In this document: in pieces, positions 2,493 through 27,897 of the stretch
Position numbering within the stretch: the stretch's first letter is position 1
Layout: each line of letters starts with the position of its first letter
Source of the DNA: Crocosphaera subtropica ATCC 51142
GTDB taxonomy: Bacteria > Cyanobacteriota > Cyanobacteriia > Cyanobacteriales > Microcystaceae
Direction of reading: 5' to 3'
DNA: 32,000 nucleotides
Assembly: GCF_000017845.1 (NCBI RefSeq)
Contig: NC_010546.1
Span: 4,410,001 to 4,442,000, forward strand
Translations under genes and position numbers: made by a program
Notes under the pieces: model-generated
What the model was told of the DNA's origin: nothing
What the model saw: the letters and a program-made list of their open reading frames with translations, nothing else
The model's database searches: none

Positions 2493-4319
2493 TTACCAGG
2501 TAGGATTATCATGAATCAGTTCAGTTGCCGTTTCAGCATCCAAGGGTTTAGCAAAGAGAAACCCTTGGCCAAAATGACACCCTAACTTGCGAAGTTGTTC
2601 TAATTGTTCGGTGGTTTCAATCCCTTCTGCTACCACATCCATCGTCATAACTTCAGCAATACTTAAAATAACAGGAACTAACCCTAAATTTTCACTATTT
2701 TTATCAACATTTTTTAAAAAAGAACGATCAATTTTTAAGGTATTAATCGGAAAATTTTGCAATTGACTTAAAGATGAATAACCCGTCCCAAAATCATCAA
2801 TACTCAGTTTAATCCCTCGTTTCCACAATTCCCCTAATAATACTTTAGTGGTTTGTAAATCTTGCATCATAGAACTTTCAGTAATTTCTAATTTCACGGA
2901 ATCCGTATGTAGTTTCGTTTCCATTAAAATTCCATCGATTTCTGCCACTAAATTACTTTGATTTAATTGTTGTGCTGCCAAATTGATATAAATTTTTAAA
3001 TCCGTAAATCCTTGCTGATGCCATTGGGACAGCTGACGACAGGCTTCTTTCATTACCCAACTACCAATTTCACAAATTAAGCCTGTTTCTTCTGCTAAGG
3101 GTAGAAATTCACCAGGAGAAATCATGCCTTTTTGGGGATGTATCCAACGAATTAAGGCTTCAAACCCTGCAATTTTATTCTGTTTTAAATCAATAATAGG
3201 TTGATAGTAAACAGCAAATTCTTCCTGTTGTACCGCCCGATGTAAATCTGTTTGTAAAATTAATAATTTTTTAGCTATTTCATACATTTCGGGGGTAAAA
3301 ATTTGATATTGACCTCTTCCTAAAGATTTGGCTTTATACATAGCCATATCTGCATCTCTGACAATATTTTCAGGATCTTCGTAATCGGGATGACTAAAAA
3401 CAATGCCAATACTAACATTAACAAAAATTTCCTGACCATTACAATAAAAGGGTTGTTTCAATAAATTGAGAATACTTTTTGCTAGTTCTGTCCCTTGAGT
3501 ACATCCAGAAATATCAGATAATAAAATGGCAAATTCATCTCCGCCAACACGGGCAAGAATATCATTTTTTTCAAGGATAGTTTGTAATGCTTGACTAATT
3601 TTTCCTAGCAGAAGATTTCCGACTAAATGACCGAGCGAATCGTTGATAATTTTAAAACGATCGCAGTCTAAAAATAAAACAGCAAATTGATAGTTTTTGT
3701 CCAGTTTCGTGAGAGTTAGAGACTGTTTTAATTGTTCAATCAATAAATTGCGATTGGCTAACCCAGTTAAAGAGTCATACAGTGCCATTTCTTGCAGTCG
3801 GTTATTAGCTTCTTGTAACTGTTGGGTTCTTTCTGTAACTCGTCGTTCAAGTTGGGCATTTAATTGATAAACTTCTTTTTGTGCTGTTCTCAAAGCTAAT
3901 TGGTTTTTGACCCTAACTAAGACTTCTTCCATCTGAAACGGTTTACTAATATAATCTACCCCTCCCATTTCAAACGCTTTCACTTTATCAAAAACATCAT
4001 CCAAAGCACTCAAGAAAATTACAGGAATATCTGCAGTATCAGGATTTTCTTTGAGCTTTTGACAGACCTCATAACCACTCATATCCCCCATCATAATATC
4101 AAGCATAATGAGATCCGGTGGCAGGGTTTTTACTACTTTTAAAGCCATTTTGCCCCCTGTTGCTTTACGGACGCTATAGCCTTGTTCTATTAAAATACTA
4201 GAGAGTACCCTTAAGTTTTCGATGGTATCATCAACGATTAAAATATCTTTGACCCTTAAGGATCTTTGTTCTGCTGCACATTTGAGGAGAAGGTCTGCGT
4301 TTTTAGGGTTAGGGATCAT
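2493..4319 (-). CDS. response regulator with GGDEF and EAL domains (c-di-GMP turnover)
   Basis: 608 aa. REC domain (ILIVDD...DLIMLDIMMGDMSG...K), a coiled coil, an intact GGDEF (RVGGDEFAILL) and an intact EAL (FEALIRW, DDFGTGYSSL, KIDRSF). Confidence 0.95.
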   Translation of the reverse strand: MIPNPKNADLLLKCAAEQRSLRVKDILIVDDTIENLRVLSSILIEQGYSVRKATGGKMALKVVKTLPPDLIMLDIMMGDMSGYEVCQKLKENPDTADIPVIFLSALDDVFDKVKAFEMGGVDYISKPFQMEEVLVRVKNQLALRTAQKEVYQLNAQLERRVTERTQQLQEANNRLQEMALYDSLTGLANRNLLIEQLKQSLTLTKLDKNYQFAVLFLDCDRFKIINDSLGHLVGNLLLGKISQALQTILEKNDILARVGGDEFAILLSDISGCTQGTELAKSILNLLKQPFYCNGQEIFVNVSIGIVFSHPDYEDPENIVRDADMAMYKAKSLGRGQYQIFTPEMYEIAKKLLILQTDLHRAVQQEEFAVYYQPIIDLKQNKIAGFEALIRWIHPQKGMISPGEFLPLAEETGLICEIGSWVMKEACRQLSQWHQQGFTDLKIYINLAAQQLNQSNLVAEIDGILMETKLHTDSVKLEITESSMMQDLQTTKVLLGELWKRGIKLSIDDFGTGYSSLSQLQNFPINTLKIDRSFLKNVDKNSENLGLVPVILSIAEVMTMDVVAEGIETTEQLEQLRKLGCHFGQGFLFAKPLDAETATELIHDNPTW

Positions 4320-4471
4320 TGATTTTTCTTGTTAAGTTGGAAAACACATTGTCGACTTACCCAAATCTTAGTAATAAAGAATAATTACTCATGTATCGAG
4401 TTGGGCAATAGGAAACAAGAAACGGGGAAAATTCTCATTGATACTACTCAAGTTTAATAGATTACAAGTTG

Positions 4472-7000
4472 TTAAACAACGTGGTTTTTACTTAATTCGA
4501 TAATTTCGTCAAATTGAAAATTATCTATTAACTCCTGTAACGCATTTTTAAAAGCGGTTTGTTCTGGGGGGATTTCTTCTAGTAATTTTAATAATGATAG
4601 ATCATTGCCTTCACAAGCTCGTTGATAAATTTGTGCTATCCATTGACTAGGCATTACATTAAGATGTTCATCGGTTAAACTAAATAGACCATGAGTCTGA
4701 TAATCGTCTAGGGTGCTAGGGATTTCCTCCTCATAAATATATTGAACCCCTAAATATTGAGCCATTTTGTCAAAAATCTCTTGAGATCGGAAGGGTTTAG
4801 CAGCAAAATCATCGCATCCACAGTCTAAAACCTCTTGTCGTTGTTCTTCAAAGACACTAGCGGTTAAAGCAATAATCACCGTTGCTTGTCCTTTGAGAGA
4901 GGCTTTAATGCGTTTTGTGGCTTCGTAACCATTCATAATAGGCATTTGCATATCCATCCAGATCAAGTGAGGTTCCCAAGCGTCCCAAAGGGCGATCGCT
5001 TCACGTCCATTGGTTGCTTCTTTGACATCAAACCCCACTAACGTCAGTAATTTTACCAATAAATCTCGATTTGTTTGTTTATCCTCTACCACTAAAATAC
5101 GGAAATGAGGTTGATCAGGGGCTAAAGCCACAGGATAACGGAAGAGAGTAGGGGTTGTGTCCTTACTGGCAGAAATCGCTGGACAAAAATGAATATTAAA
5201 GGTGAAAGTTGTGCCTTCTGTTACCACGCTGTTGACCATAATTTTTCCTCCCATTAAGTTGATAAATTTACTACTAATGGGAAGTCCTAACCCGGTTCCT
5301 TCTCCTGAATTAACCCCTGCTTTAGCTTGAACAAAGGGGGAAAATAATTGCTCTAATTCTTCCTTTTCGATACCTTGTCCTGTATCTTCGACGGCAAAGA
5401 ATAATCGATGACCTTCGCACCAAACTTTAACAGTTACCCTTCCTTTTTCTGTAAATTTGATGGCATTACCGATAATATTAATTAAAACCTGACGTAATTT
5501 TTTTTCATCCGTTCTAATATATTGAGGAACCGTACAATCACGAATAAAAGATAAGCTAAGTTGTTTGATGGTGGCTTTTAGTTGTAATAAAGTTTCTAGT
5601 TCATCTAAGAGATGGTATAAATCAAAATCCGTTTCTTTAAGAACAATTTGACCTGCTTCGATTTTGGACATTTCTAGAACATCATTAATTAAGCCTAAAA
5701 GATGTTCGCCACTATCATTAATGGTTTGTAGGTTATTGCGATGATCTGAGGACAAAGAAGTTGAACGTAACATTAACTGCACATAACCCAAAATGGCGTT
5801 GAGGGGGGTTCTTAATTCATGACTCATACTGGCCAAAAATTCACTTTTGGCATGGTTGGCTTTTTCGGCCGCAATTTTCGCCAATTCTAACTCTTCTGCT
5901 TGGTTTTGAGTTTGTTTAAATAATTCTCCCTGTTGGACTGCCACCCCTAACTGTTGTCCCACCTGTAGTACAATTTGAACCGCAGCATCGTCCCAGTCAC
6001 GGGGAGTGGAGAGTTGATAGGTTAAGATTAATCCCCAGAGTTGATTACTGCAAAAAATAGGCACAACAATATAGGCTTTAGCTTGTAGTTGTTCGAGGAG
6101 ATTGATATAACAGGGGGTAAACCCGGCCTCGTAAATATTTGACACCACCCGATAAGTATTTTTCTTCGTAAAAGGTTCCCCTTGAGACTCTTGTAAATGG
6201 GTATCTTCAATAGTGTTAATGGTGCATTTTTCTTCTTCGGTGGTGGTTAATAATTCTTCTGGAGTGGTGATCAGATTTAATGTTGGCCATCCCTCAGAGA
6301 CAGACTCAGCCACGACTTGACCACTCCAGTCAGGATTAAACTGATAAACGATAACCCGTTCACAGCTAATGGCTTGTCTCAGTTCTTCTGTGGTGGCTGC
6401 AAAAATCTTCTCTAAATTTAGGGTTTGTCGCATCCGTTGAATCACCCTAGTAATGGCTTTTTCCCGTCCTAAAGTTTCTTGTAATTTCTTGGTTCTTTCT
6501 TTGACTTGTGTTTCGAGTTGCGTATTGAGGTTCCGCAGTTTATCTTCTATTTTTTGTCGTTCATCAACTTCTTTTTGTAGTTCTTGGTTGATGGTTTCTA
6601 GTTGTTCTGGGGTTTTCAGAGATAAAAAGGTAGGAATAAGGAACACCATTTCCATCGCCGTATAGCAAGACACCAAAGCAGTGATGGCTTTTTCTATGCC
6701 CGATAACCAATAGAGGGGATACCAAAGGGTCACGATGTCTATCAGATGACCCATTCCACAAAGAATAATAAAAGCCCCAAAGAGAATAAAAACATTTTGA
6801 AAGGGTACATCACTGCGTTTGAAAACAAAATAAAGGAGAAGAATGGGAATGGAAAAATAGGCGATCGCAATTAAACCATCACTGATCACATGAAGGGAAA
6901 CTAAAGGAGTTTGCCATAAATAACAATGGCCGTGGGGGATATAAGCTAAATAGTGGTTAATAAGGTTTGCCAAGAGTTGGGAATTAGGAATAAACAGCAT
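4472..7000 (-). CDS. hybrid sensor histidine kinase with an ETR1-like ethylene-binding domain, GAF, HisKA/HATPase and REC
   Basis: The N-terminal three-TM block aligns with plant ETR1 (ISDGLIAIAYFSIPILLLYFVFK; FGAFIILCGMGHLID, with Cys and His spaced as ETR1 C65/H69; ALVSCYTAMEMV; LSLKTPE). A phytochrome-type GAF follows (VYQFNPDWSGQVVAE...PCYINLLEQLQAKAYIVVPI). Then come the H-box SHELRTPLN, the HATPase G-box GTGLGL, and a REC domain (ILVVEDK...WMDMQMP). The ATG at 7000 is preferred over the TTG at 7066 given in the ORF track. Confidence 0.9.
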   Translation of the reverse strand: MLFIPNSQLLANLINHYLAYIPHGHCYLWQTPLVSLHVISDGLIAIAYFSIPILLLYFVFKRSDVPFQNVFILFGAFIILCGMGHLIDIVTLWYPLYWLSGIEKAITALVSCYTAMEMVFLIPTFLSLKTPEQLETINQELQKEVDERQKIEDKLRNLNTQLETQVKERTKKLQETLGREKAITRVIQRMRQTLNLEKIFAATTEELRQAISCERVIVYQFNPDWSGQVVAESVSEGWPTLNLITTPEELLTTTEEEKCTINTIEDTHLQESQGEPFTKKNTYRVVSNIYEAGFTPCYINLLEQLQAKAYIVVPIFCSNQLWGLILTYQLSTPRDWDDAAVQIVLQVGQQLGVAVQQGELFKQTQNQAEELELAKIAAEKANHAKSEFLASMSHELRTPLNAILGYVQLMLRSTSLSSDHRNNLQTINDSGEHLLGLINDVLEMSKIEAGQIVLKETDFDLYHLLDELETLLQLKATIKQLSLSFIRDCTVPQYIRTDEKKLRQVLINIIGNAIKFTEKGRVTVKVWCEGHRLFFAVEDTGQGIEKEELEQLFSPFVQAKAGVNSGEGTGLGLPISSKFINLMGGKIMVNSVVTEGTTFTFNIHFCPAISASKDTTPTLFRYPVALAPDQPHFRILVVEDKQTNRDLLVKLLTLVGFDVKEATNGREAIALWDAWEPHLIWMDMQMPIMNGYEATKRIKASLKGQATVIIALTASVFEEQRQEVLDCGCDDFAAKPFRSQEIFDKMAQYLGVQYIYEEEIPSTLDDYQTHGLFSLTDEHLNVMPSQWIAQIYQRACEGNDLSLLKLLEEIPPEQTAFKNALQELIDNFQFDEIIELSKNHVV

Positions 7001-7140
7001 TCTAGTTCTGATTGCATATAAGTTATTTTTCCTTTTTATTTTTCCCAAAATGAAGCCCTGACACAAAAATTCACCAACGGTGTTGTGTAAGCTGTTTTCA
7101 GTCCCTAATTAGGAAATACGATACACTAAAAGAACTTACA

Positions 7141-7701
7141 GTGAATGCTATAGATACCAGTAATATGAATAAATCCTATCAAAAAATTGTTGTTATTGTC
7201 TCTGGTTTTGCCTTACTTATCAGTATGACTGTGGCGGGGTTTTCCTTTAGACAAACCCCTTCTTCTTCCCCGGAGGCTAATTCGGAAGCAGTTTCCCCAG
7301 AGGAAAGGTTAAAATCCATTATCGAAGGTTATGAGAGTGTTCTTGAAAGAGAACCGGATAATCCTACCGCTAAACAAGGATTAGAAGAGGCACTTAGAGC
7401 CTTTATTGCCACACAAGCACAAGCGGGAAATTTAGAACAAGCCATTCCTCCCATGGAAAAATTAGCAGCTTTAGTCCCTGAGAATGAGCAGTATCAAGAA
7501 ATTCTCAAACAAATGAAACAAGCTCAACAACAAGCTCAGTCTGCACCTCCTCCAAGTCAACCGGAAGTCACTAACCCTGAGTCCGATGAACCCCTTCCCC
7601 TGATTATTCCAGAGGCTCAAGAAGACTCTAATCCTTTATTAAATCCTCAAGAAAATTCTAACCCTTTATCCCCTTCTGGAACTAATCCCAATCCTAATTA
7701 A
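7141..7701 (+). CDS. hypothetical membrane-anchored, Pro/Gln-rich protein
   Basis: 186 aa. One N-terminal TM helix (IVVIVSGFALLISMTVAGF), a helical TPR-like middle and a low-complexity NP-rich tail. The ORF starts with GTG at 7141, with an alternative ATG at 7165. I recognise no family. Confidence 0.5.
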   Translation: MNAIDTSNMNKSYQKIVVIVSGFALLISMTVAGFSFRQTPSSSPEANSEAVSPEERLKSIIEGYESVLEREPDNPTAKQGLEEALRAFIATQAQAGNLEQAIPPMEKLAALVPENEQYQEILKQMKQAQQQAQSAPPPSQPEVTNPESDEPLPLIIPEAQEDSNPLLNPQENSNPLSPSGTNPNPN

Positions 7702-7934: not shown

Positions 7935-9683
7935 CTACTTTTTACTTGCTAAACCAGCTAACCCCACGCAAGCCAAAGCATTAACTCCTAGAAAAGCTCT
8001 AGAAATCTCTAGTGAGGGCATTCCCCACACCGTAGGGGACATAATAGCATGAACCGTTAAACAAGCTGCTATCCCCAAACTGGTGCCAATGGCAAACCAT
8101 TTCCAGCTACGATGACCTAACAAAATAACAATTAAAACAAAGGGGACGAACACGCTGGCTAAAAAGGGATTTAAAGCAGTAGTCCCTTCAATGGAATTAG
8201 TTAATTCTGGGATAGAACTACCCATGACACGAAACGGCCATTGAGGTAAGTCAAAGATGTAAATCCCTTGTAAAAAGAATAAACCAGAACTTCCCAACAC
8301 TAAACCCCAATTCAAAGGAAGACTAAACGTTAAATAGTTGCGTAACAAGAACGCCAGCAGATACGATCCCAACACCATTAAGAGTTTGGGTAACAACGCA
8401 ACCATACCGCCATCTATCCAAAAACGAGGGTTTAAATAGCCACTATCCCGTAACCAACGGAAAAAGTCTCGAAAGGTTATTTTACCTTTGAGAGCGAGTT
8501 TAACCGCTTCTCCTGCGTCTAATTGACCAGCACCATAATAGTTAAAGGTATCGTCTTCAACTTTACGGGAGGATTGGGTGAGAATAGCTAAAATTTCATT
8601 CGGTTTTTCCACACCAGCAGCTTTAATTAAGGCAGCCACTCCGGCTACATGAGGCGCAGCCATACTGGTTCCCTGGAACCCTGAAAACACGGAATCTCCT
8701 GTACTGGGATCGATGGTTTCTTGGAGAATTTTCCCACTTTCACTACCCCCAGGGGCTGAAATATCAACTCCGGCACCATAATTAGAATAATTCGCTTTTT
8801 TTCCGGCTGCATCAAGGGCCGAAACACTGATCACTTTAGGATATCTAGCCGGATATGAAGCTGCATTTTGATTGCTGTTTCCGGCTGCAGCAATGATGAC
8901 CACACCTTTATCATAGGCGTAGTCAATGGCATCTTTCATCACCTGGCTTTCGCCACCTCCCCCTAAACTCATATTGATAATATCAGCCCCATTATCAGCA
9001 GCAAAGCGAATGGCATCAGCAATATCAGAAACGCTTCCCCCACCCTGGGCTGATAGCACTTTTATGGGCATAATTTTCGCTTGATAAGCAATACCGGCAA
9101 CGCCATAATTATTATTGGTAGACTGGGCAATGGTTCCGGCGACATGGGTTCCGTGGCCATTATCATCGGACGCATCGTTGCGATCGTTGACGAAATCATA
9201 ACCTGAGACAAACTCGGTTTGCCGTAAATCAGGAACACGACTGACTCCAGAATCAATAACAGCGACGGTGATCCCTTCCCCTTTGGTTTCTTCCCAGGCT
9301 CTTTCGACATGGATATTGTGTAAGTTCCATTGTTTACTATAGTCTGGGTCGTTGGGGGTTTCTAAAGCGTGATAAATGTAGTTCGGTTCGATATAATCGA
9401 CGTACTGTTTTAAGGAAGAGTGTTTAAGACTATTTAATAGTTGTTTGTCTCCTGAAACGGTGTATATATGTTCGTCGATCGCATAGATACTATTGAGACT
9501 TGCAGACTTGTTATAGTTAGTTGCGATCGCTTCTATTTGTTCAGTGAGGGTTGTCGTTGAAACATCTTCTCGGAAATTAACAATAATTGATTCATAGTCG
9601 CCTTGGGTAGCCAGTCCTTGAAAATTCATCAAAGCAACCCATAAGCCCACTATAAATAAAATGAGGAATAAAAGTTTCTTCAT
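7935..9683 (-). CDS. S8 (subtilisin-family) serine peptidase with a C-terminal polytopic membrane domain
   Basis: 582 aa. Signal/anchor MKKLLFLILFIVGLWVAL. Catalytic triad motifs VAVIDSGV (D), HGTHVAGT (H) and GTSMAAPHVAG (S). The last ~180 aa contain several hydrophobic helices. Confidence 0.9.
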   Translation of the reverse strand: MKKLLFLILFIVGLWVALMNFQGLATQGDYESIIVNFREDVSTTTLTEQIEAIATNYNKSASLNSIYAIDEHIYTVSGDKQLLNSLKHSSLKQYVDYIEPNYIYHALETPNDPDYSKQWNLHNIHVERAWEETKGEGITVAVIDSGVSRVPDLRQTEFVSGYDFVNDRNDASDDNGHGTHVAGTIAQSTNNNYGVAGIAYQAKIMPIKVLSAQGGGSVSDIADAIRFAADNGADIINMSLGGGGESQVMKDAIDYAYDKGVVIIAAAGNSNQNAASYPARYPKVISVSALDAAGKKANYSNYGAGVDISAPGGSESGKILQETIDPSTGDSVFSGFQGTSMAAPHVAGVAALIKAAGVEKPNEILAILTQSSRKVEDDTFNYYGAGQLDAGEAVKLALKGKITFRDFFRWLRDSGYLNPRFWIDGGMVALLPKLLMVLGSYLLAFLLRNYLTFSLPLNWGLVLGSSGLFFLQGIYIFDLPQWPFRVMGSSIPELTNSIEGTTALNPFLASVFVPFVLIVILLGHRSWKWFAIGTSLGIAACLTVHAIMSPTVWGMPSLEISRAFLGVNALACVGLAGLASKK

Positions 9684-11384: not shown

Positions 11385-12575
11385 ATGGTAACATCTCATT
11401 CTTCAAACTCTGTTGGTTATGATATCGAAAAAACTGTCCTGGATCGTTATCAAGAAGGGGCAAAAGTTCAACAACCTAGTTTATGTTGTCCCACGGAATA
11501 TGAGGGTAACTATTTAGAAATTTTGCCCCAAGAAATTATCGAAAAAGATTACGGCTGTGGTGATCCGACTCGTTATGTGGATGAAGGGGAAACAGTTTTA
11601 GATTTAGGATCGGGAACGGGAAAAAATTGTTATATTTTAGCCAAAAAAGTGGGTAAAACTGGTCAAGTGATTGGGGTTGATTTTAATGATGAGATGTTGA
11701 AAATCGCCCGTAAATATCAACAAGAAATTGCGAATAAAATTGGAACTCATAATACTAAATTTATCAAGGGAAAGATACAAGATTTAACCCTAGATTTAGA
11801 CTTAGTTGAAAGTTGGTTACGGGATCATCCGATTCAATCAGTAGATGATTTAAGTCGGTTTGAAAGTGAATGCGATCGCTTACGGAAAGAAACTCCTTTA
11901 GTAGCAGATGATAGCATTGATGTAGTCATTTCTAACTGTGTTTTGAACTTGGTTAAACCTGATGATAAACAACAGTTATTTGAAGAACTGTATCGGGTTT
12001 TAAAGCGTGGCGGAAGGGCAGTTATTTCTGATATTGTCTGTGATGAAGATCCCACCGAAAACATTTTTAATGATCCCGATTTATGGAGTGGTTGTATTGC
12101 CGGAGCATTCCGAGAAGATGAATTTTTAAAGATGTTTGAAAAAGTGGGATTTTATGGGGTAGAAATTCTAAAACGGGAGGAAACCCCTTGGCAAGTTATT
12201 GATGGTGTGGAATTTCGTTCCATGACTATTCGTGCTTATAAAGGAAAAGAAGGACCTTGTTTAGAAAGAAAACAATCAATTATTTATAAAGGGCCTTGGA
12301 AACAAGTTCAAGACGATGATGGACACATTTTTTGTCGGGGAGAAAGGATGGCAGTTTGTGATAAGACTTATCATATTTTAACCCGTGCCGAAAGTCCTTA
12401 TCAAGCAGATATTATTGGGGTTCCTCCTTATCAAGAAATACCCTTAGAAGAAGCAACGGAATTTAGTTGCAAAAATAAGGCAATTCGTCATCCTAAAGAA
12501 ACCAAAGGCAGTAACTATCATCTCACAGAAATAAAAGAAGATATGGACTGTTGTACTCCTGGAGAATGTTGTTAA
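11385..12575 (+). CDS. arsM: arsenite S-adenosylmethionine methyltransferase
   Basis: 396 aa. SAM motif VLDLGSGTGKNC, plus the ArsM-type conserved cysteines in context (LCCPTEYEG, DYGCGDP, ISNCVLNL, WSGCIAGA). It has a C-terminal domain as in three-domain ArsMs and ends in DCCTPGECC. Confidence 0.85.
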   Translation: MVTSHSSNSVGYDIEKTVLDRYQEGAKVQQPSLCCPTEYEGNYLEILPQEIIEKDYGCGDPTRYVDEGETVLDLGSGTGKNCYILAKKVGKTGQVIGVDFNDEMLKIARKYQQEIANKIGTHNTKFIKGKIQDLTLDLDLVESWLRDHPIQSVDDLSRFESECDRLRKETPLVADDSIDVVISNCVLNLVKPDDKQQLFEELYRVLKRGGRAVISDIVCDEDPTENIFNDPDLWSGCIAGAFREDEFLKMFEKVGFYGVEILKREETPWQVIDGVEFRSMTIRAYKGKEGPCLERKQSIIYKGPWKQVQDDDGHIFCRGERMAVCDKTYHILTRAESPYQADIIGVPPYQEIPLEEATEFSCKNKAIRHPKETKGSNYHLTEIKEDMDCCTPGECC

Positions 12576-12583
12576 TTATTGAT

Positions 12584-12644
12584 TTGTTAACAGTGATTAT
12601 TAAGCGCACCGCTTTGCGGATCTCTTCGAGATCGCTGTTAACAA
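12584..12644. repeat. 61-bp inverted-repeat insert (miniature MITE-like element or compound hairpin) between arsM and arsS
   Basis: Terminal inverted repeat ttgttaacag(tgat) / (atcg)ctgttaacaa. Internal hairpins ccgc-ttt-gcgg and gatctc-ttc-gagatc. The 8-bp direct repeat TTATTGAT lies at 12576-12583, directly abutting the element, and again at 12646-12653, one base past its right end. Confidence 0.55.
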
Positions 12645-12653
12645 CTTATTGAT

Positions 12654-13661
12654 ATGGAGAAAAAAATGATTACTTTAAATACGAATCAACTCACCCCATT
12701 TCATCAGAAAATCAAACATCCTTTAAATAAACAAAGAATAACTGTATTACAAATCAATTTAGGTCGACGTTGTAATCTTGCTTGTAACCATTGTCATGTA
12801 GAAGCAAGTCCCAAACGGACAGAAGAATTATCACCCAAAATTTGTCAACAATTAATTGAATTAATTAACCGCTTTCCACAAATTGAAACCGTAGATTTAA
12901 CGGGAGGCGCACCGGAAATGAACTACGGGTTTAAACCCTTAGTTGAAGCAGCTAGAAACATTAAAAAAGAAGTGATTGTACGCTCCAATTTAACCATATT
13001 TTTTGAGACTGGTTTTGAAGATTTACCCGAATATTTTGCTAAAAATCAGTTAAGAGTCATTGCTTCTTTACCTTGTTATTTAGAGGATAATGTAGATAAA
13101 CAAAGAGGTAAAGGGGTTTATGATGCTTCTATTCGTGCTATTCAAAAACTTAATCAATTGGGTTATGGAAATGATCCCAATTTAATCTTAGATTTAGTTT
13201 ATAATCCTCCCATTCCTAGCAACGAAAACTTTTCTTTAACTCCCAATCAAGTTAGTTTAGAAAAAGATTATCAGACTTTTCTTAAAGATAATTTTGATAT
13301 TAAATTTGATCAACTGTTTACTATTACTAATTTACCCATTGGCAGAGTAAAAAAGTATTTAAAACATAAAAAATTATATGATTCTTATCTGCAATTTTTA
13401 GAGTCTCATTATAACCCCCAAACTCTCGATTATGTTATGTGTCGTAATCAAATTTCTGTTGATTATTTAGGGAATATTTATGACTGTGATTTTAATCAAA
13501 TGGAGAATATTACAGCTACCTTACCCGATGGGAAACCTTTAACCGTAGAAACTTTATTAAAAATGGGTAATTTAGACGTTATTAATGACATCAAAACGGC
13601 TGATTACTGTTATGGTTGTACTGCCGGAAGCGGTTCGAGTTGTGGGGGTTCATTAATTTGA
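12654..13661 (+). CDS. arsS: arsenosugar-biosynthesis radical SAM protein (radical SAM/Cys-rich family, TIGR04167-type)
   Basis: 335 aa. CX3CX2C cluster motif (RRCNLACNHCH) and the characteristic C-terminal Cys-rich tail ADYCYGCTAGSGSSCGG. It sits immediately downstream of arsM. Confidence 0.8.
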   Translation: MEKKMITLNTNQLTPFHQKIKHPLNKQRITVLQINLGRRCNLACNHCHVEASPKRTEELSPKICQQLIELINRFPQIETVDLTGGAPEMNYGFKPLVEAARNIKKEVIVRSNLTIFFETGFEDLPEYFAKNQLRVIASLPCYLEDNVDKQRGKGVYDASIRAIQKLNQLGYGNDPNLILDLVYNPPIPSNENFSLTPNQVSLEKDYQTFLKDNFDIKFDQLFTITNLPIGRVKKYLKHKKLYDSYLQFLESHYNPQTLDYVMCRNQISVDYLGNIYDCDFNQMENITATLPDGKPLTVETLLKMGNLDVINDIKTADYCYGCTAGSGSSCGGSLI

Positions 13662-13692
13662 TTTATTGGGGGATTAAACCCAGGAGAAACCC

Positions 13693-14424
13693 ATGAAACA
13701 TAAGAAAGAATCAAGGCGACGACTGTTGAAATTAGGAGGTATTACTGTGTTAACGGCTGCTTCAATAATTATTATAAAACAGCTAGGAGTTTTAGATGCT
13801 TTTAGTATCACTGAAACTCTACAAAATTTATTACAATGGATACAAGATTTAGGAACGATTGGTTATTTAATCTTTACTTTAGTATATATATTATCAGCCG
13901 TTTTATTAATTCCTGCGTCTATTTTAACCTTGGGTGCCGGCGCTATTTTCGATGTGGTGAAAGGTTCTATTTTAGTTTCTATTGCATCGATGTTAGGAGC
14001 AATTGTAGCATTTTTAATCGGACGTTATTTTGCCAGAGGATGGGTTTCTAAACAAATACAAAAATATCCAAAATTTCAAGTGGTTGATGAAGCGGTGGCA
14101 CAAGAAGGATGGAAAATTGTGGGATTAACTCGCTTATCTCCTGTACTTCCTTTTGTTATTTTAAACTATGCTTTTGGTATTACTCAAGTCTCCTTAAAAG
14201 ATTATATAACCGCTTCTTGGATAGGAATGTTACCGGGGACAATCATGTATGTTTATCTTGGTTCTCTTATTGGTAATATTGCCACGTTAGGGGCAGGAGG
14301 AAGGGAAAGAACCTCTTTAGAATGGGCATTATATATTGTTGGATTAATCGCTACGGTATTAGTCACGGTTTATGTTACTAAAGTGTCTCAAAATGCCTTA
14401 AATAATCAAATTGAGAAAACTTAA
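13693..14424 (+). CDS. TVP38/TMEM64 (DedA/SNARE-associated) family membrane protein
   Basis: 243 aa, polytopic. Family motifs include LLIPASILTLGAGAIFD..G, IGRYFARGWV and GLTRLSPVLPFVILNYAFGIT. It starts 31 nt after arsS and is preceded by AGGAG. Confidence 0.8.
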   Translation: MKHKKESRRRLLKLGGITVLTAASIIIIKQLGVLDAFSITETLQNLLQWIQDLGTIGYLIFTLVYILSAVLLIPASILTLGAGAIFDVVKGSILVSIASMLGAIVAFLIGRYFARGWVSKQIQKYPKFQVVDEAVAQEGWKIVGLTRLSPVLPFVILNYAFGITQVSLKDYITASWIGMLPGTIMYVYLGSLIGNIATLGAGGRERTSLEWALYIVGLIATVLVTVYVTKVSQNALNNQIEKT

Positions 14425-24095: not shown

Positions 24096-24578
24096 GAGAA
24101 TTGGCATTAGTTAAGTGTAGGAGAATTGTGATTTTGATCGTTAGTAGATTGAATTGATATGACAACTGCTATAAAGAATTGTGAATAAAAGAGACTAATC
24201 TAGGCAGATTCCTAGGGAGTTGCGTTATAAAAATAATGACTAAACGCTTATGAGCAAAAAGCATCTTGTAGGAAAGGCTATCTGTGCATCAATCTCACAG
24301 GACGGAGTAATAGCCTAACCAGAAGAACCTAATGTTACTCATGAGTCCCTAACCAAGATCGGTGCATTTAGCCCTGACCCAATTTTTATCCACTGCATCT
24401 AAAGTGTTGAGAATTTACTGAGCGGACTTTACTCTCTTTTAGACAAGTATACAGAGAGTTAGACGTTGACAAAGAAATATTATTTAGGCAATTGCTCAAC
24501 ACATAAATCCCATAAATAAAGACTTGTTTGATCTGTATTCAGTCCATTAAGAAGATTAATATCCGTTTTTTCACAACT

Positions 24579-26006
24579 ATGTTAACCCAAAATCAACTAT
24601 CAACCCAGAACCCATCAGAATTTACCAACTGGGGAAAAACAATCATCTCTCATCCGAAAATTGTCGTCAAACCCAAGACACTCGATGATTTAATCCTCAT
24701 CATAAGAGATACCCAAACCTATCCTTCCCCCATACGAGCCATCGGCTCTAATCACTCTACCACTCAGTGTGCTGTTGCTGATGGTGGAACGGTGGTCGAT
24801 ATGACTGGCTTTAACCAAATTCTTGAGATTAATACTGAGGCAAAAACAGTTACCGTTCAGGCGGGTGCTTTGTACCTCGATGTCGCTGAAGAACTTCGTA
24901 AACAAGGACTGCAATTTTTTGTCAACGTTGAGTTAGGCAACTTGTCTATGGGCAGTGCAGCCTGTGGGGGAACCAAAGATGCGTCCATGCCTGGGGAATT
25001 TGGCCAAGTTTGTTCCTATGCCATTTCCCTGAAGATGGTAACCCCCCAAGGTAAACCGATTGAAATTAACGAAGAACAACCAGAATTGTTGCGTATTGCT
25101 CGTTCTAGTTACGGTTTGTTGGGTATCGTTTACGAAGTGACCTTTAAGGTCAGGCCAGCCCGTCCTATGGCTTTACGACACAAAGTCTATCAACTAGAAG
25201 AATTTATCTGCGCCCTACCCAACATGATTAATCGACCATTAGAGCAACAAGAATCGATAATGCTTTATTTGTTTCCCTTTCTCGATGAAGTTGCGGTGGA
25301 GTTTCGTCAATATCAAGAAGAAGGGAAAACCTCTGGTTCTCTATTATGGGACTTGCGTAACTGGACTTGGAGCAGTCTCGCCCCTGGTTTATCCTATCTG
25401 TTAACTCGGTTAATGCCCATCAAAACATTTCGCTATGGATTAATTGATCAGTTTAATCAAAAAGTTCAATTGGTCATGGAAAAAATCTTAAAAAATCCAT
25501 CGGGAACCAGTGCCACCGATCAAATTATTCGTTATCCCGATGAATCAGATTGGAAAAAATATACCTTCAGTATTTGGGCCTTTCCTGAAGCTGAATATCC
25601 AGCAATTCTAAGAGCTTATTTTGAATTTTGCCGTAACTATTACAAAGAACAGGGTTATCGTTGCAATATGCTCAATGTTGCCTATCGTATTCTTCAAGAT
25701 GATAGTTCTTTATTTTCCTATTCTTCAGACAGTAACGTTATGACCCTTGATCCCGTTTCCACCGGTGATCCTGGATGGGGCGACTTTATTACAGCTTATA
25801 ACGAGTTTTGTAGTCAGTATGGCGGTGTTCCCTTATTTAATCAGACGAGAGGCATTACCCCACAACAAGTAGAAAAAGCTTTCGGCGATCGCCTTGCTAC
25901 CTTTGAACAGTATCGTCAACAATATGATCCCCACGATCGAATGCTCAATCAGTATTTTCGTGACAGACTCCAAGGAACACTGATCTCCTCACAGCAGAAC
26001 GCTTAA
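24579..26006 (+). CDS. FAD-binding (PCMH/FAD_binding_4) oxidase, sugar-lactone/alditol-oxidase-like
   Basis: N-terminal FAD domain (NWGKTIISHPKIVVKPKTLDDLILII...IRAIGSNHS...VVDMTGFNQILEINTEAKTVTVQAGALYLDV). The C-terminal domain ends YDPHDRMLNQYF, like the ALO/GULO family. The ATG at 24579 is preferred over the TTG at 24528. Confidence 0.75.
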   Translation: MLTQNQLSTQNPSEFTNWGKTIISHPKIVVKPKTLDDLILIIRDTQTYPSPIRAIGSNHSTTQCAVADGGTVVDMTGFNQILEINTEAKTVTVQAGALYLDVAEELRKQGLQFFVNVELGNLSMGSAACGGTKDASMPGEFGQVCSYAISLKMVTPQGKPIEINEEQPELLRIARSSYGLLGIVYEVTFKVRPARPMALRHKVYQLEEFICALPNMINRPLEQQESIMLYLFPFLDEVAVEFRQYQEEGKTSGSLLWDLRNWTWSSLAPGLSYLLTRLMPIKTFRYGLIDQFNQKVQLVMEKILKNPSGTSATDQIIRYPDESDWKKYTFSIWAFPEAEYPAILRAYFEFCRNYYKEQGYRCNMLNVAYRILQDDSSLFSYSSDSNVMTLDPVSTGDPGWGDFITAYNEFCSQYGGVPLFNQTRGITPQQVEKAFGDRLATFEQYRQQYDPHDRMLNQYFRDRLQGTLISSQQNA

Positions 26007-26097
26007 TGTTTATCAAGGCTTAACCCTCAAAGCTTAGTCTACGACCAAGATAGAGTTGAAAAAGCTCATCATTTCATTGTTACAAGACATTCTTCCT

Positions 26098-27897
26098 ATG
26101 ACTATTTTCGACAAATTTGACAGTATTTTCACCCAAGTTGAACAACTATGGCATCGTTTGCCGACCCCTTTAGCCTTAATCAAACTCCTAACCTTTCGCA
26201 ACGAACTACGAGAGAAAAACCTTCACGACACCTCTCAACTACCTGATAAACACCTGTTACCCCAACCCACCCCTGACCCTCAAGGTCATCACCTCACGGC
26301 CAGGACTGCAGATGGTAGTTTTAACGACTTAGAACACCCAGAAATGGGCATGGCCGGGACTCGTTTTGGTCGCAATATTCCCTTAACGGCCATTCAGCCA
26401 GAAACCCCACAACAACTAATGACCCCTAACCCCAGGGTGGTGAGTCGAACTTTAATGACCAGAGAGGACTTTAAACCGGCCACTATCCTCAATCTTTTGG
26501 CGGCCGCTTGGATTCAATTTGAAAACCATGATTGGTTTTCTCACGGGGATAATAAACCAGAGGATAAACTGGAAATCCCCCTAGAAGCTAACGATCCCTG
26601 GCCTGAGGAATATCGTCCCCTAGAAGTGGGGAAAACCCTTCCTGATACCTCCCGTCCCGAAGGGGCCAAACCGCCCACGTTTATCAATACCGTGACCCAC
26701 TGGTGGGATGGATCGCAAATTTATGGGAGTAACCCCGAAACCGTGGATCAGTTGCGATCGCACGAAGATGGTAAATTAATCATTGGAGAAAATGGCTTAC
26801 TACCTGTTGACCCAGAAACAGGGGTGGATATTACCGGGTTTAACGATAACTGGTGGATCGGGTTAGGGATGTTGCATACTCTATTTACCCGTGAACATAA
26901 CCTTATTTGTGACCATCTTAAACAAGAATATTCCCAATGGTCTGATGATGATTTATTTGACCACGCCCGTTTGATTAATGCAGCTTTGATGGCTAAAATT
27001 CATACGGTAGACTGGACTCCTGCCATCTTACCCCTACCCGCCACCGATATCGCCTTAAATGTGAACTGGAATGGATTTTTAGGGGAAGATATTAAGCAAG
27101 TCTTAGGAACCGTGGGAGAAGGAGAAATTGCTGACTTATTAACCGGTATTATTGGATCGGATAAAAATCACCATACCGCCCCTTATTATTTAACCGAAGA
27201 GTTTGTTTCTGTTTATCGAATGCACCCTTTAATCCCTGATGAACTCGAATTTCGCAGTTTAGAAGGGGATAAATTCTTACAAGAGGTTAACTTCTTCGAG
27301 ATGTCAGGAAAACGGACTCGGGCCTTATTAGAATCGATTTCGTTACCTGATTTATTTTACTCCTTTGGGATTACTCATCCAGGAGCTATTACCCTTCATA
27401 ATTATCCCCGTTTCTTGCAACAATTGGTCAGGGATAATGGAGAAGTTTTTGATCTCGCTGCAGTGGATATTTTACGCGATCGCGAACGGGGTGTTCCTCG
27501 TTATAACCGTTTCCGTGAAATCATGGGACGGGGAAGGGTGAAATGTTTTGAAGAAATCAGCAGCAATAAACAATGGGTCGAAGAAATGCGTCGGGTTTAT
27601 AACGATAATATCGATCAGGTGGATTTAATGGTGGGATTATTCGCCGAAGATACCCCAGAAGGGTTCGGGTTTAGTGATACGGCGTTTCGGGTCTTCATTT
27701 TAATGGCTTCCCGACGACTGAAAAGCGATCGCTTTTTTACAACAGATTACCGGGCTGAAATTTATACTCAATTCGGTCTAGACTGGATTGCTAATAACAA
27801 TATGGTATCTGTGTTGCAACGTCATTTTCCCCAACTTTCCCCTGTATTGTACGGGGTAGATAATGCTTTCAAACCGTGGCGCAGAGTTCCTTCTTAG
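26098..27897 (+). CDS. haem peroxidase-cyclooxygenase superfamily protein, plant alpha-dioxygenase-like fatty-acid dioxygenase
   Basis: Colinear alpha-DOX/COX motifs: AAAWIQFENHDWFSH (distal His, codon 26527-26529), HWWDGSQIYGSN, LHTLFTREHN, KIHTVDWTPAIL, EEFVSVYRMHPLIPD (catalytic Tyr codon 27214-27216, proximal His 27223-27225) and RDRERGVPRYNRFR. An alternative TTG start lies at 26056. Confidence 0.85.
   Translation: MTIFDKFDSIFTQVEQLWHRLPTPLALIKLLTFRNELREKNLHDTSQLPDKHLLPQPTPDPQGHHLTARTADGSFNDLEHPEMGMAGTRFGRNIPLTAIQPETPQQLMTPNPRVVSRTLMTREDFKPATILNLLAAAWIQFENHDWFSHGDNKPEDKLEIPLEANDPWPEEYRPLEVGKTLPDTSRPEGAKPPTFINTVTHWWDGSQIYGSNPETVDQLRSHEDGKLIIGENGLLPVDPETGVDITGFNDNWWIGLGMLHTLFTREHNLICDHLKQEYSQWSDDDLFDHARLINAALMAKIHTVDWTPAILPLPATDIALNVNWNGFLGEDIKQVLGTVGEGEIADLLTGIIGSDKNHHTAPYYLTEEFVSVYRMHPLIPDELEFRSLEGDKFLQEVNFFEMSGKRTRALLESISLPDLFYSFGITHPGAITLHNYPRFLQQLVRDNGEVFDLAAVDILRDRERGVPRYNRFREIMGRGRVKCFEEISSNKQWVEEMRRVYNDNIDQVDLMVGLFAEDTPEGFGFSDTAFRVFILMASRRLKSDRFFTTDYRAEIYTQFGLDWIANNNMVSVLQRHFPQLSPVLYGVDNAFKPWRRVPS

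Follow-up and report, generated by a model that had tools for sequence, protein, structure and literature searches.

The window analyzed here, a stretch of 32,000 nucleotides (nt) from Crocosphaera subtropica ATCC 51142 (contig NC_010546.1, positions 4,410,001 to 4,442,000), carries on its minus strand two adjacent genes, one for a hybrid sensor histidine kinase and one for a response regulator with receiver (REC), GGDEF and EAL domains. We consider it likely, with a probability of roughly 0.6, that these genes form a conserved two-gene module in which the kinase would respond to both ethylene and light and its REC-GGDEF-EAL partner would adjust the cyclic di-GMP (c-di-GMP) balance of the cell. 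By family, the kinase adds a new member to the cyanobacterial ethylene-receptor-like kinases, which are already known. The likeness of its N-terminus to the plant ethylene receptor ETR1 was pointed out in an earlier note on this DNA, and the sequence matches behind that observation are far beyond what chance would produce. All coordinates below are window positions and, unless stated otherwise, refer to the minus strand.

The kinase gene (4472..7000) encodes a protein of 842 amino acids (aa) from an ATG at position 7000. A mechanical call of the open reading frame (ORF) extends it to a TTG at 7066 (4472..7066); however, orthologs of 834–843 aa begin at the equivalent of the ATG, which is therefore the likely true start. 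The regulator gene (2493..4319, 608 aa) follows after a spacer of 152 nt (4320..4471), in which neither a terminator nor a sigma-70-like promoter was predicted. Pfam identified the domains ETR1_N, GAF, HisKA, HATPase_c and Response_reg in the kinase, and Response_reg, GGDEF (E 1.6e-46) and EAL (E 2.9e-75) in the regulator. The layout given in the earlier note (two minus-strand genes, the ATG start and the 152-nt gap) and the domain content it proposed for both proteins were borne out by the ORFs, the starts of the orthologs and the Pfam matches. Among named relatives the closest is Crocosphaera chwakensis CCY0110, whose kinase is 85–87% identical. An Rfam scan across the whole window gave no match.

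Based on its sequence, the N-terminus of the kinase is a true ETR1-type ethylene-binding domain (EBD; aa ~20–135, 6596..6943). It scores 133 bits with the Pfam family PF25487 (ETR1_N), for which the cut-off is 27 (E 4.7e-39), the match spanning profile positions 2–97 of 97, and its Kyte-Doolittle hydropathy profile peaks at aa ~42–53, 72–85 and 114–117, corresponding to three hydrophobic segments of which the third is weak. In an alignment with plant EBDs (Noccaea, Passiflora ETR1_PASED, Amborella and Pelargonium ETR1_PELHO) the domain is 46% identical over ETR1 residues 20–128, with two small gaps. The motifs ISD, IAIAYFSIP, FGAFIILCG..HLI and VSCYTA align with the plant ETR sequences as had been claimed, although the description of this match as almost residue for residue was somewhat generous given the level of identity and the gaps. 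Residue numbering follows the N-terminus of Arabidopsis thaliana ETR1 (AtETR1); the sequence used was validated by its 99% identity to a Brassicaceae protein named "Ethylene receptor" (P0238), and its numbering also agrees with the classical alleles C65Y, A102T, A31V and I62F.

The equivalents of ETR1 residues D25, Y32, I35, P36, I62, C65, H69 and K91 are all unchanged in the kinase, and 95 cyanobacterial homologs show no or almost no variation at these positions. Among them, the sequence C81-G-M-G-H85, which is invariant in the 95 homologs, contains the equivalents of the Cu(I) ligands Cys65 and His69 and lies exactly where the earlier note had placed it (6746..6760). Also unchanged are D41 (6878..6880), the equivalent of Asp25, and its proposed partner K104 (6689-6691), the equivalent of Lys91. 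The possibility that residues essential in ETR1, namely those equivalent to D25, Y32, C65 and H69, are not actually conserved had been raised beforehand, and the alignment to the plant ETR sequences shows that all four are retained. The seven residues other than K91 are those that AtETR1 requires to bind ethylene, and GeiEtr1 and GeiEtr2 were regarded as putative receptors because they retain them (Allen et al., 2019, PMC6682694), while the roles of D25 and K91 were shown by Azhar et al. (2023, PMC10266040). A search of the PDB with the EBD revealed no solved structure that covers the domain, and a homolog search with the EBD only returned just short cyanobacterial fragments and zero plant sequences. 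One of the EBD fragments in the protein database (P0070) also has a match to EAL, which suggests that direct EBD-EAL fusions exist.

The second sensory domain of the kinase, a GAF domain (aa ~186–365, 5906..6445), is of the cyanobacteriochrome (CBCR) type by its sequence, and not plant-like, a feature that had been overlooked previously. Its best matches in a phmmer search of the PDB were to NpR6012g4 (6bhn, E 4.3e-50), AnPixJg2 (3w2z, E 7.7e-47) and Slr1393g3 (5dfx, E 3.4e-35), and it is ~50% identical to the bilin-binding domains NpR6012g4 and AnPixJg2. An alignment of the plant GAF region with the kinase GAF domain gave no meaningful similarity. The statement that the protein mirrors plant subfamily-1 receptors is therefore correct with respect to the EBD-GAF-HK-REC order, where HK is the histidine kinase transmitter, but it does not extend to the GAF domain itself. 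Since this domain is of the CBCR type, the closer analog is the dual light and ethylene sensor SynEtr1 rather than plant ETR1, and the kinase is probably, like SynEtr1, a dual sensor of ethylene and short-wavelength light.

The residues expected to hold a bilin in this GAF domain have a distinctive arrangement. The predicted bilin-attachment residue Cys297, together with Tyr298 (6107..6112), aligns to the Cys-His (CH) of NpR6012g4 and AnPixJg2. A second Cys, C259 (6224..6226), lies within an insertion of ~13 residues relative to these two domains and is kept in orthologs, and the insertion is directly followed by the motif DTHL (6194-6205) and then QE. This arrangement resembles that of the insert-Cys CBCRs, in which the second Cys is situated in a loose CxxR/K loop, DTYL stands in place of DXCF, and light from near-UV to orange is sensed (PMC5240096). 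Of the 120 best full-length homologs, 97 have an EBD, and 76 of these combine an insertion Cys with DT[YH]L and Cys-Tyr; of the 23 that have no EBD, 15 show an ordinary Cys-His and no insertion Cys. The signature recurs in the ~840-aa orthologs, in EBD kinases of Nostocales and oscillatorian cyanobacteria and in GeiEtr2.

Downstream of its sensory domains the kinase has a HisKA and HATPase_c transmitter (5189..5851) with intact N, G1 and G2 boxes, whose motifs include the phosphoacceptor H394 in the H-box (5819-5821), NAIKF, DTGQG and GTGLGL. Next comes the receiver of the kinase itself (4766..5098), which has a complete set of residues (VVED, the phospho-Asp D683 at 4952-4954, T and K). The protein ends in a tail of ~73 aa (4475..4693) with the consensus MP.eW...aA.qG.D...Li.qIP.E...L.enfqFd.i, which had no Pfam match but is conserved in 94 homologs and also in GeiEtr2. 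We considered whether the tail is a hidden histidine phosphotransfer (HPt) domain and rejected this on the basis of the missing Pfam match and the finding that no His is conserved among the 94 homologs; the tail may instead have a role in docking or regulation.

The regulator has all of the residues expected for signal reception and for both synthesis and hydrolysis of c-di-GMP, and an adjacent same-strand regulator with intact GGDEF and EAL motifs is what the earlier note had described. Its receiver (3909..4244) has the DD pair, the phospho-Asp D74 (4098-4100), S and K. The GGDEF domain (3312..3785) has an intact active site (D-x-FK, NDxxGH, GGDEF at 3531-3545 and YKAKxxGR). The position of the allosteric I-site, five residues upstream of GGDEF (3561-3572), is occupied by EKND and not RxxD, and RxxD is also missing from nearly all of the orthologous partners. 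The catalytic set of the EAL domain (2544..3248) is complete (EAL at 3153-3161, N, EITE, DDFGTG at 2781-2798, KID, EGIE and QG), and the EAL domain is intact in all full-length partner proteins.

Supporting a functional link between the two genes is the fact that their pairing is evolutionarily conserved. We scanned one genome per species, which gave at least 576 EBD loci, and annotated the best 80. The kinase gene has a REC-GGDEF-EAL gene directly downstream and in the same orientation in Crocosphaera chwakensis, SU3, Stanieria and Hyella, as well as in five Nostocales genomes, a metagenome-assembled Nostocaceae genome and Phormidium tenue, and in Acaryochloris the downstream partner is REC-GGDEF alone. 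In both C. chwakensis (kinase 85% identical) and Stanieria cyanosphaera (62%) the partner is kept and all other neighbors differ. In S. cyanosphaera the two genes are 36 nt apart, and the equivalent spacers in orthologs range from 5 to 350 nt. When the 64 assessable EBD-kinase loci were considered, with the window counted, 15 had a GGDEF partner directly downstream and 12 of these 15 partners were full REC-GGDEF-EAL proteins. In the 1.09 Mb of flanking sequence, 15 ORFs with GGDEF or EAL domains were directly downstream of EBD genes versus one elsewhere.

The remaining loci indicate that the output domain attached to the partner receiver varies. A REC-PAS-GAF-Guanylate_cyc partner was present at 14 of the 64 loci and a REC-HK partner at ~20, while the remainder had a single receiver or nothing. 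Whatever their output, the partner receivers are 50–87% identical to the receiver of the window regulator; the kinases' own receivers are 27–39% identical to it. The protein that follows the EBD kinase in many filamentous cyanobacteria is ~650 aa long, with the REC-PAS-GAF-Guanylate_cyc arrangement and a receiver of the partner lineage (L013:11146-13095; L022, L023, L029, L039, L040, L043, L046, L053 and L060), which suggests a cyclic nucleotide monophosphate output instead of c-di-GMP at these loci. In five Nostocales loci (L010, L014, L016, L025 and L045) the EBD kinase and REC-GGDEF-EAL genes are followed by a gene for a REC-HisKA-HATPase protein of ~430 aa with the same receiver type, and this three-gene arrangement suggests a branched or multi-step pathway.

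Coupling of the kinase straight to c-di-GMP turnover would, according to the earlier note, be a different wiring. The pairing itself is conserved, as described above, but it had already been noticed, as a gene with a diguanylate cyclase domain adjoining that for GeiEtr2 was reported by Allen et al. (2019, PMC6682694, main text and Supplementary Figure 3). In the AzoEtr1 paper, which we examined for a link between EBDs and c-di-GMP, c-di-GMP occurs in the reference list only.

Taken as a pathway, the module is predicted to operate as follows. The three-helix, Cu(I)-dependent EBD (C81, H85 and D41), homologous to those of plant ETR1 and SynEtr1, would sense ethylene, and the two-Cys, insert-Cys-like GAF domain would bind a bilin and respond to light from the near-UV to the blue or visible. 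With both sensors of the membrane-anchored kinase in series upstream of one HisKA/HATPase transmitter, ethylene and light would jointly set the balance of its kinase and phosphatase activities. The phosphate might pass directly from His to the Asp of the partner, with the internal receiver as a competitor or modulator, or it might be relayed through an unlinked HPt protein. The phosphorylation state of D74 in the partner receiver is expected to shift c-di-GMP synthesis relative to hydrolysis, in a direction that could be of either sign, and c-di-GMP would then control surface behaviors such as aggregation, exopolysaccharide production and pili.

Several observations weigh against this reading of the two genes as an ethylene- and light-responsive c-di-GMP module. 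At the most general level, all of its support comes from sequence. In the GAF domain the Cys-His of CBCRs is replaced by Cys-Tyr (C297-Y298), and we found no characterized CBCR with this substitution; the exchange of His for Tyr beside the bilin Cys means that chromophore binding could be impaired. The insertion motif in the window is C-T-I-N and not CxxR/K, and many orthologs have C-A-I-K together with DTYL. Finally, a subgroup of Acaryochloris-like EBD kinases (L086:5001-8655 and L008; proteins P0182, P0195, P0196, P0215, P0217 and P0236) has lost both GAF Cys residues (DPYTL, not xCYL), with the architecture kept and a REC-GGDEF partner that has no EAL, so their GAF domains are evidently able to work without a bilin.

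These features of the GAF domain could be accommodated if the kinase sensed ethylene only, with its CBCR-derived GAF domain having a structural or dimerization role as in plant ETR1 and its Cys residues being relics or serving redox or structural functions. The Acaryochloris-like subgroup fits such a role, as does the presence of Cys-Tyr, in place of the near-universal Cys-His, here and in most EBD homologs, and so does the replacement of the lid Trp of red/green CBCRs in the kinase GAF domain. We nevertheless consider a sensor of ethylene only to be unlikely. The level of identity between this GAF domain and photoactive CBCRs is at odds with it, and several cyanobacterial orders have kept both Cys residues, the insertion and the Asp of DT[YH]L, which implies that there has been selection on a two-Cys site. 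Moreover, SynEtr1 is a precedent for the combination of an EBD with a photoactive two-Cys CBCR.

Other points on the same side of the balance concern the link from the kinase to the regulator. Our best 80 of the at least 576 EBD loci are a biased sample, a GGDEF partner is present at only about one in four of the EBD-kinase loci sampled, and the same receiver lineage also follows two close homologs that have no EBD. The last observation indicates that it is the transmitter core (HK-REC-tail) to which the cassette belongs, the EBD being one of several possible inputs. In addition, the kinase, as a hybrid, carries a receiver of its own, and it has no Hpt match by Pfam. Since it has no HPt domain, and its tail has no conserved His, the route of phosphate to a separate receiver is uncertain, and direct phosphotransfer to the neighbor is something that we infer.

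It is conceivable on these grounds that the REC-GGDEF-EAL neighbor is not the phosphoacceptor, with the kinase instead using its own receiver and tail or an unlinked HPt protein, and the neighbor being merely co-transcribed or belonging to another kinase. The domain content of the kinase (its own receiver and no HPt) is consistent with such an arrangement, as are the extra REC-HK genes in the Nostocales clusters, which suggest a branched pathway, and ten hybrid EBD kinases that have no partner within 3.5 kb. However, we judge it to be quite improbable, as a dedicated receiver lineage is situated directly downstream in most loci whatever the output domain, that position is strongly enriched for GGDEF genes, and the spacers are short (5–150 nt) and on the same strand.

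The EBD of the cyanobacterial proteins also has a feature that is absent from plants. Ahead of helix I is an invariant cyanobacterial stretch, YIPHGHCYLWQTP, containing an H-G-H-C motif (aa 23–26, 6923..6934), as determined from an alignment of 13 sequences. The start of the cyanobacterial domain reads Y-I/M-P-H-G-H-C-Y-L-W-Q-T-P, versus C-N-C-I-E-P-Q-W-P in plants, with the Cys of H-G-H-C aligning to plant Cys6, and a single N-terminal Cys in cyanobacterial receptors has been reported (Allen et al., 2019, PMC6682694). This His-Gly-His-Cys cluster could comprise a dimerization Cys and an extra metal-handling site. That the ETR1-like domain senses a cue other than ethylene, such as copper status, redox or a different small, unsaturated Cu(I)-binding molecule, would be compatible with the PHGHCYLW motif, which could be a second metal site, but is highly improbable given the conservation of all the ETR1 ethylene-binding residues and the finding that both the SynEtr1 EBD and whole Synechocystis and Geitlerinema cells bind ethylene with plant-like affinity (PMC6682694).

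The closest described protein to the window kinase is GeiEtr2 of Geitlerinema/Baaleninema sp. PCC 7105, with which it shares the EBD, the GAF signature, the HisKA-HATPase transmitter, the receiver and the tail. The two are 47% identical over 712 aa (GAF-HK-REC-tail) and 42% identical over the N-terminal 258 aa. GeiEtr2 differs in having a PAS/PAC module between its EBD and GAF domain, giving it a length of 1025 aa, whereas the window kinase has no such module, and its sequence as printed has Leu where C99 of helix III stands. The published effects of ethylene on Geitlerinema were measured on whole cells (PMC6682694).

SynEtr1 (UirS, Slr1212) of Synechocystis sp. PCC 6803 likewise has a functional N-terminal EBD, a two-Cys CBCR GAF domain and a histidine kinase, and is a dual ethylene and light receptor. 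Its CBCR is of the DXCF type and senses UV-violet and green light. In the window kinase, by contrast, the second Cys sits within the insertion loop, and DTHL stands at the DXCF position. SynEtr1 lacks both a C-terminal receiver and a tail, and the targets of its signaling, UirR and LsiR, are DNA-binding regulators rather than a c-di-GMP enzyme. We looked for an output similar to UirR or LsiR among the ORFs and Pfam matches of the window cluster and found no DNA-binding regulator. The similarity to Arabidopsis ETR1 consists of the EBD at the level of identity given above and the same EBD-GAF-HK-REC order, with a BLASTP E-value for the whole protein of 7e-77. The plant receptor differs in that its GAF domain is of a non-bilin type with no real similarity to that of the window kinase, it has two N-terminal Cys residues (C4 and C6) and not the single one within HGHC, and it has no equivalent of the C-terminal tail; plant receptors also signal through CTR1 and EIN2, and not through a bacterial response regulator.

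With the insert-Cys CBCRs NpF2164g3, NpR1597g2, Mbr3854g4 and Mbl3738g2 (PMC5240096), the window GAF domain shares a second Cys in a loop ahead of D-T-Y/H-L, and both belong to the extended red/green lineage as judged by the best PDB matches. However, the insert-Cys CBCRs have Cys-His and the window GAF domain has Cys-Tyr, and the characterized examples come from multi-GAF proteins, none of which could be linked to an EBD. We considered whether NpR1597, the source of NpR1597g2, is an EBD kinase of the window family; this was not supported, as NpR1597g1 is a teal-DXCF domain and the first GAF domain of the Nostocales EBD kinases has neither DXCF nor CH. In cyanobacterial systems that couple light to c-di-GMP, such as Cph2 and SesA/B/C, GGDEF/EAL activity and behavior at the cell surface are under the control of a CBCR or phytochrome. 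In those proteins the sensor is fused to the GGDEF and EAL domains, whereas in the window a two-component phosphotransfer step is predicted to be interposed and there is an EBD in addition.

Considered together, the distribution of the GAF signature and of the partner receivers leads us to a wider and more tentative proposal, which we regard as possible rather than probable. The EBD kinases may carry a distinct CBCR lineage, marked by the insertion Cys and Cys-Tyr and almost confined to EBD proteins, that would turn them into obligate detectors of the coincidence of ethylene with short-wavelength light. These kinases might signal to one dedicated receiver lineage whose output has been repeatedly swapped (GGDEF-EAL, PAS-GAF-nucleotidyl cyclase, kinase or none), so that in Crocosphaera-like unicellular cyanobacteria ethylene would feed directly into c-di-GMP.

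The genes flanking the pair do not appear to belong with it. Directly downstream of the regulator is a gene for a dioxygenase of the 2OG-Fe_Oxy_2 family (PF10014; 1697-2371), which has its own promoter-like site at 2440-2412. We rejected it as part of the module based on this site and on its not being downstream in SU3, Stanieria or any other locus; as it is not beside the module in any relative, it is probably unrelated. We also rejected it as an ethylene-forming enzyme based on its family, as PF10014 is presumably not that of the Pseudomonas ethylene-forming enzyme. The divergent ORF upstream of the kinase (7141-7701) was similarly rejected, being common to C. chwakensis only (92% identity) and not to Stanieria. 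In C. chwakensis the region upstream of the module (L001:3393-9204) has two phage-type integrases, a DUF6262 protein, a DnaB-like helicase and a Cas12f1/TnpB-like fragment, none of which is present in the window, and looks like a mobile-element insertion.

Elsewhere in the window, the minus strand carries a subtilase (Peptidase_S8) fused to a C-terminal DUF5942 membrane domain (7935-9683, E 1e-90), a 103-aa protein (17-328) and a homolog of the SUI1 family of translation factors as identified by Pfam (1231-1575), the 103-aa protein being, judged from its sequence, presumably a carboxysome shell protein of the CcmK/BMC-domain type. On the plus strand, positions 11385-14424 encode a S-adenosylmethionine (SAM) methyltransferase with a Cys-rich C-terminus, then a radical SAM/DUF3641 protein and then a VTT-domain membrane protein, a cluster that we take to resemble arsM/arsS-type clusters for arsenic methylation or arsenosugar formation. 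Also on the plus strand (24528-27897) are an FAD_binding_4/ALO-type oxidase and a 613-aa protein of the animal heme peroxidase family (PF03098, E 7e-116), a family that is uncommon in bacteria.

To our knowledge, SynEtr1 and AzoEtr1 are the only bacterial ethylene receptors to have been studied functionally, downstream wiring is known for transcriptional outputs only, and we know of no ethylene receptor shown to use a c-di-GMP output. For the kinase described here such an output is plausible and conserved, although it had been noticed before, and the most interesting additions made by this analysis are the EBD-specific GAF domain with Cys-Tyr and an insertion Cys and the receiver lineage with its swapping of outputs. 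Since the kinase family is widespread, its domains are in Pfam and the diguanylate cyclase neighbor of GeiEtr2 had been reported, the findings refine rather than overturn current understanding. The EBD-linked Cys-Tyr GAF domain may represent a spectral and mechanistic variant that should be of interest to photoreceptor researchers. As c-di-GMP is the main bacterial switch for biofilm formation and motility, this locus and its relatives provide a compact case in which ethylene, possibly gated by near-UV or blue light, would control c-di-GMP. If this is true, ethylene made photochemically or biologically would be linked to aggregation in marine and mat cyanobacteria.

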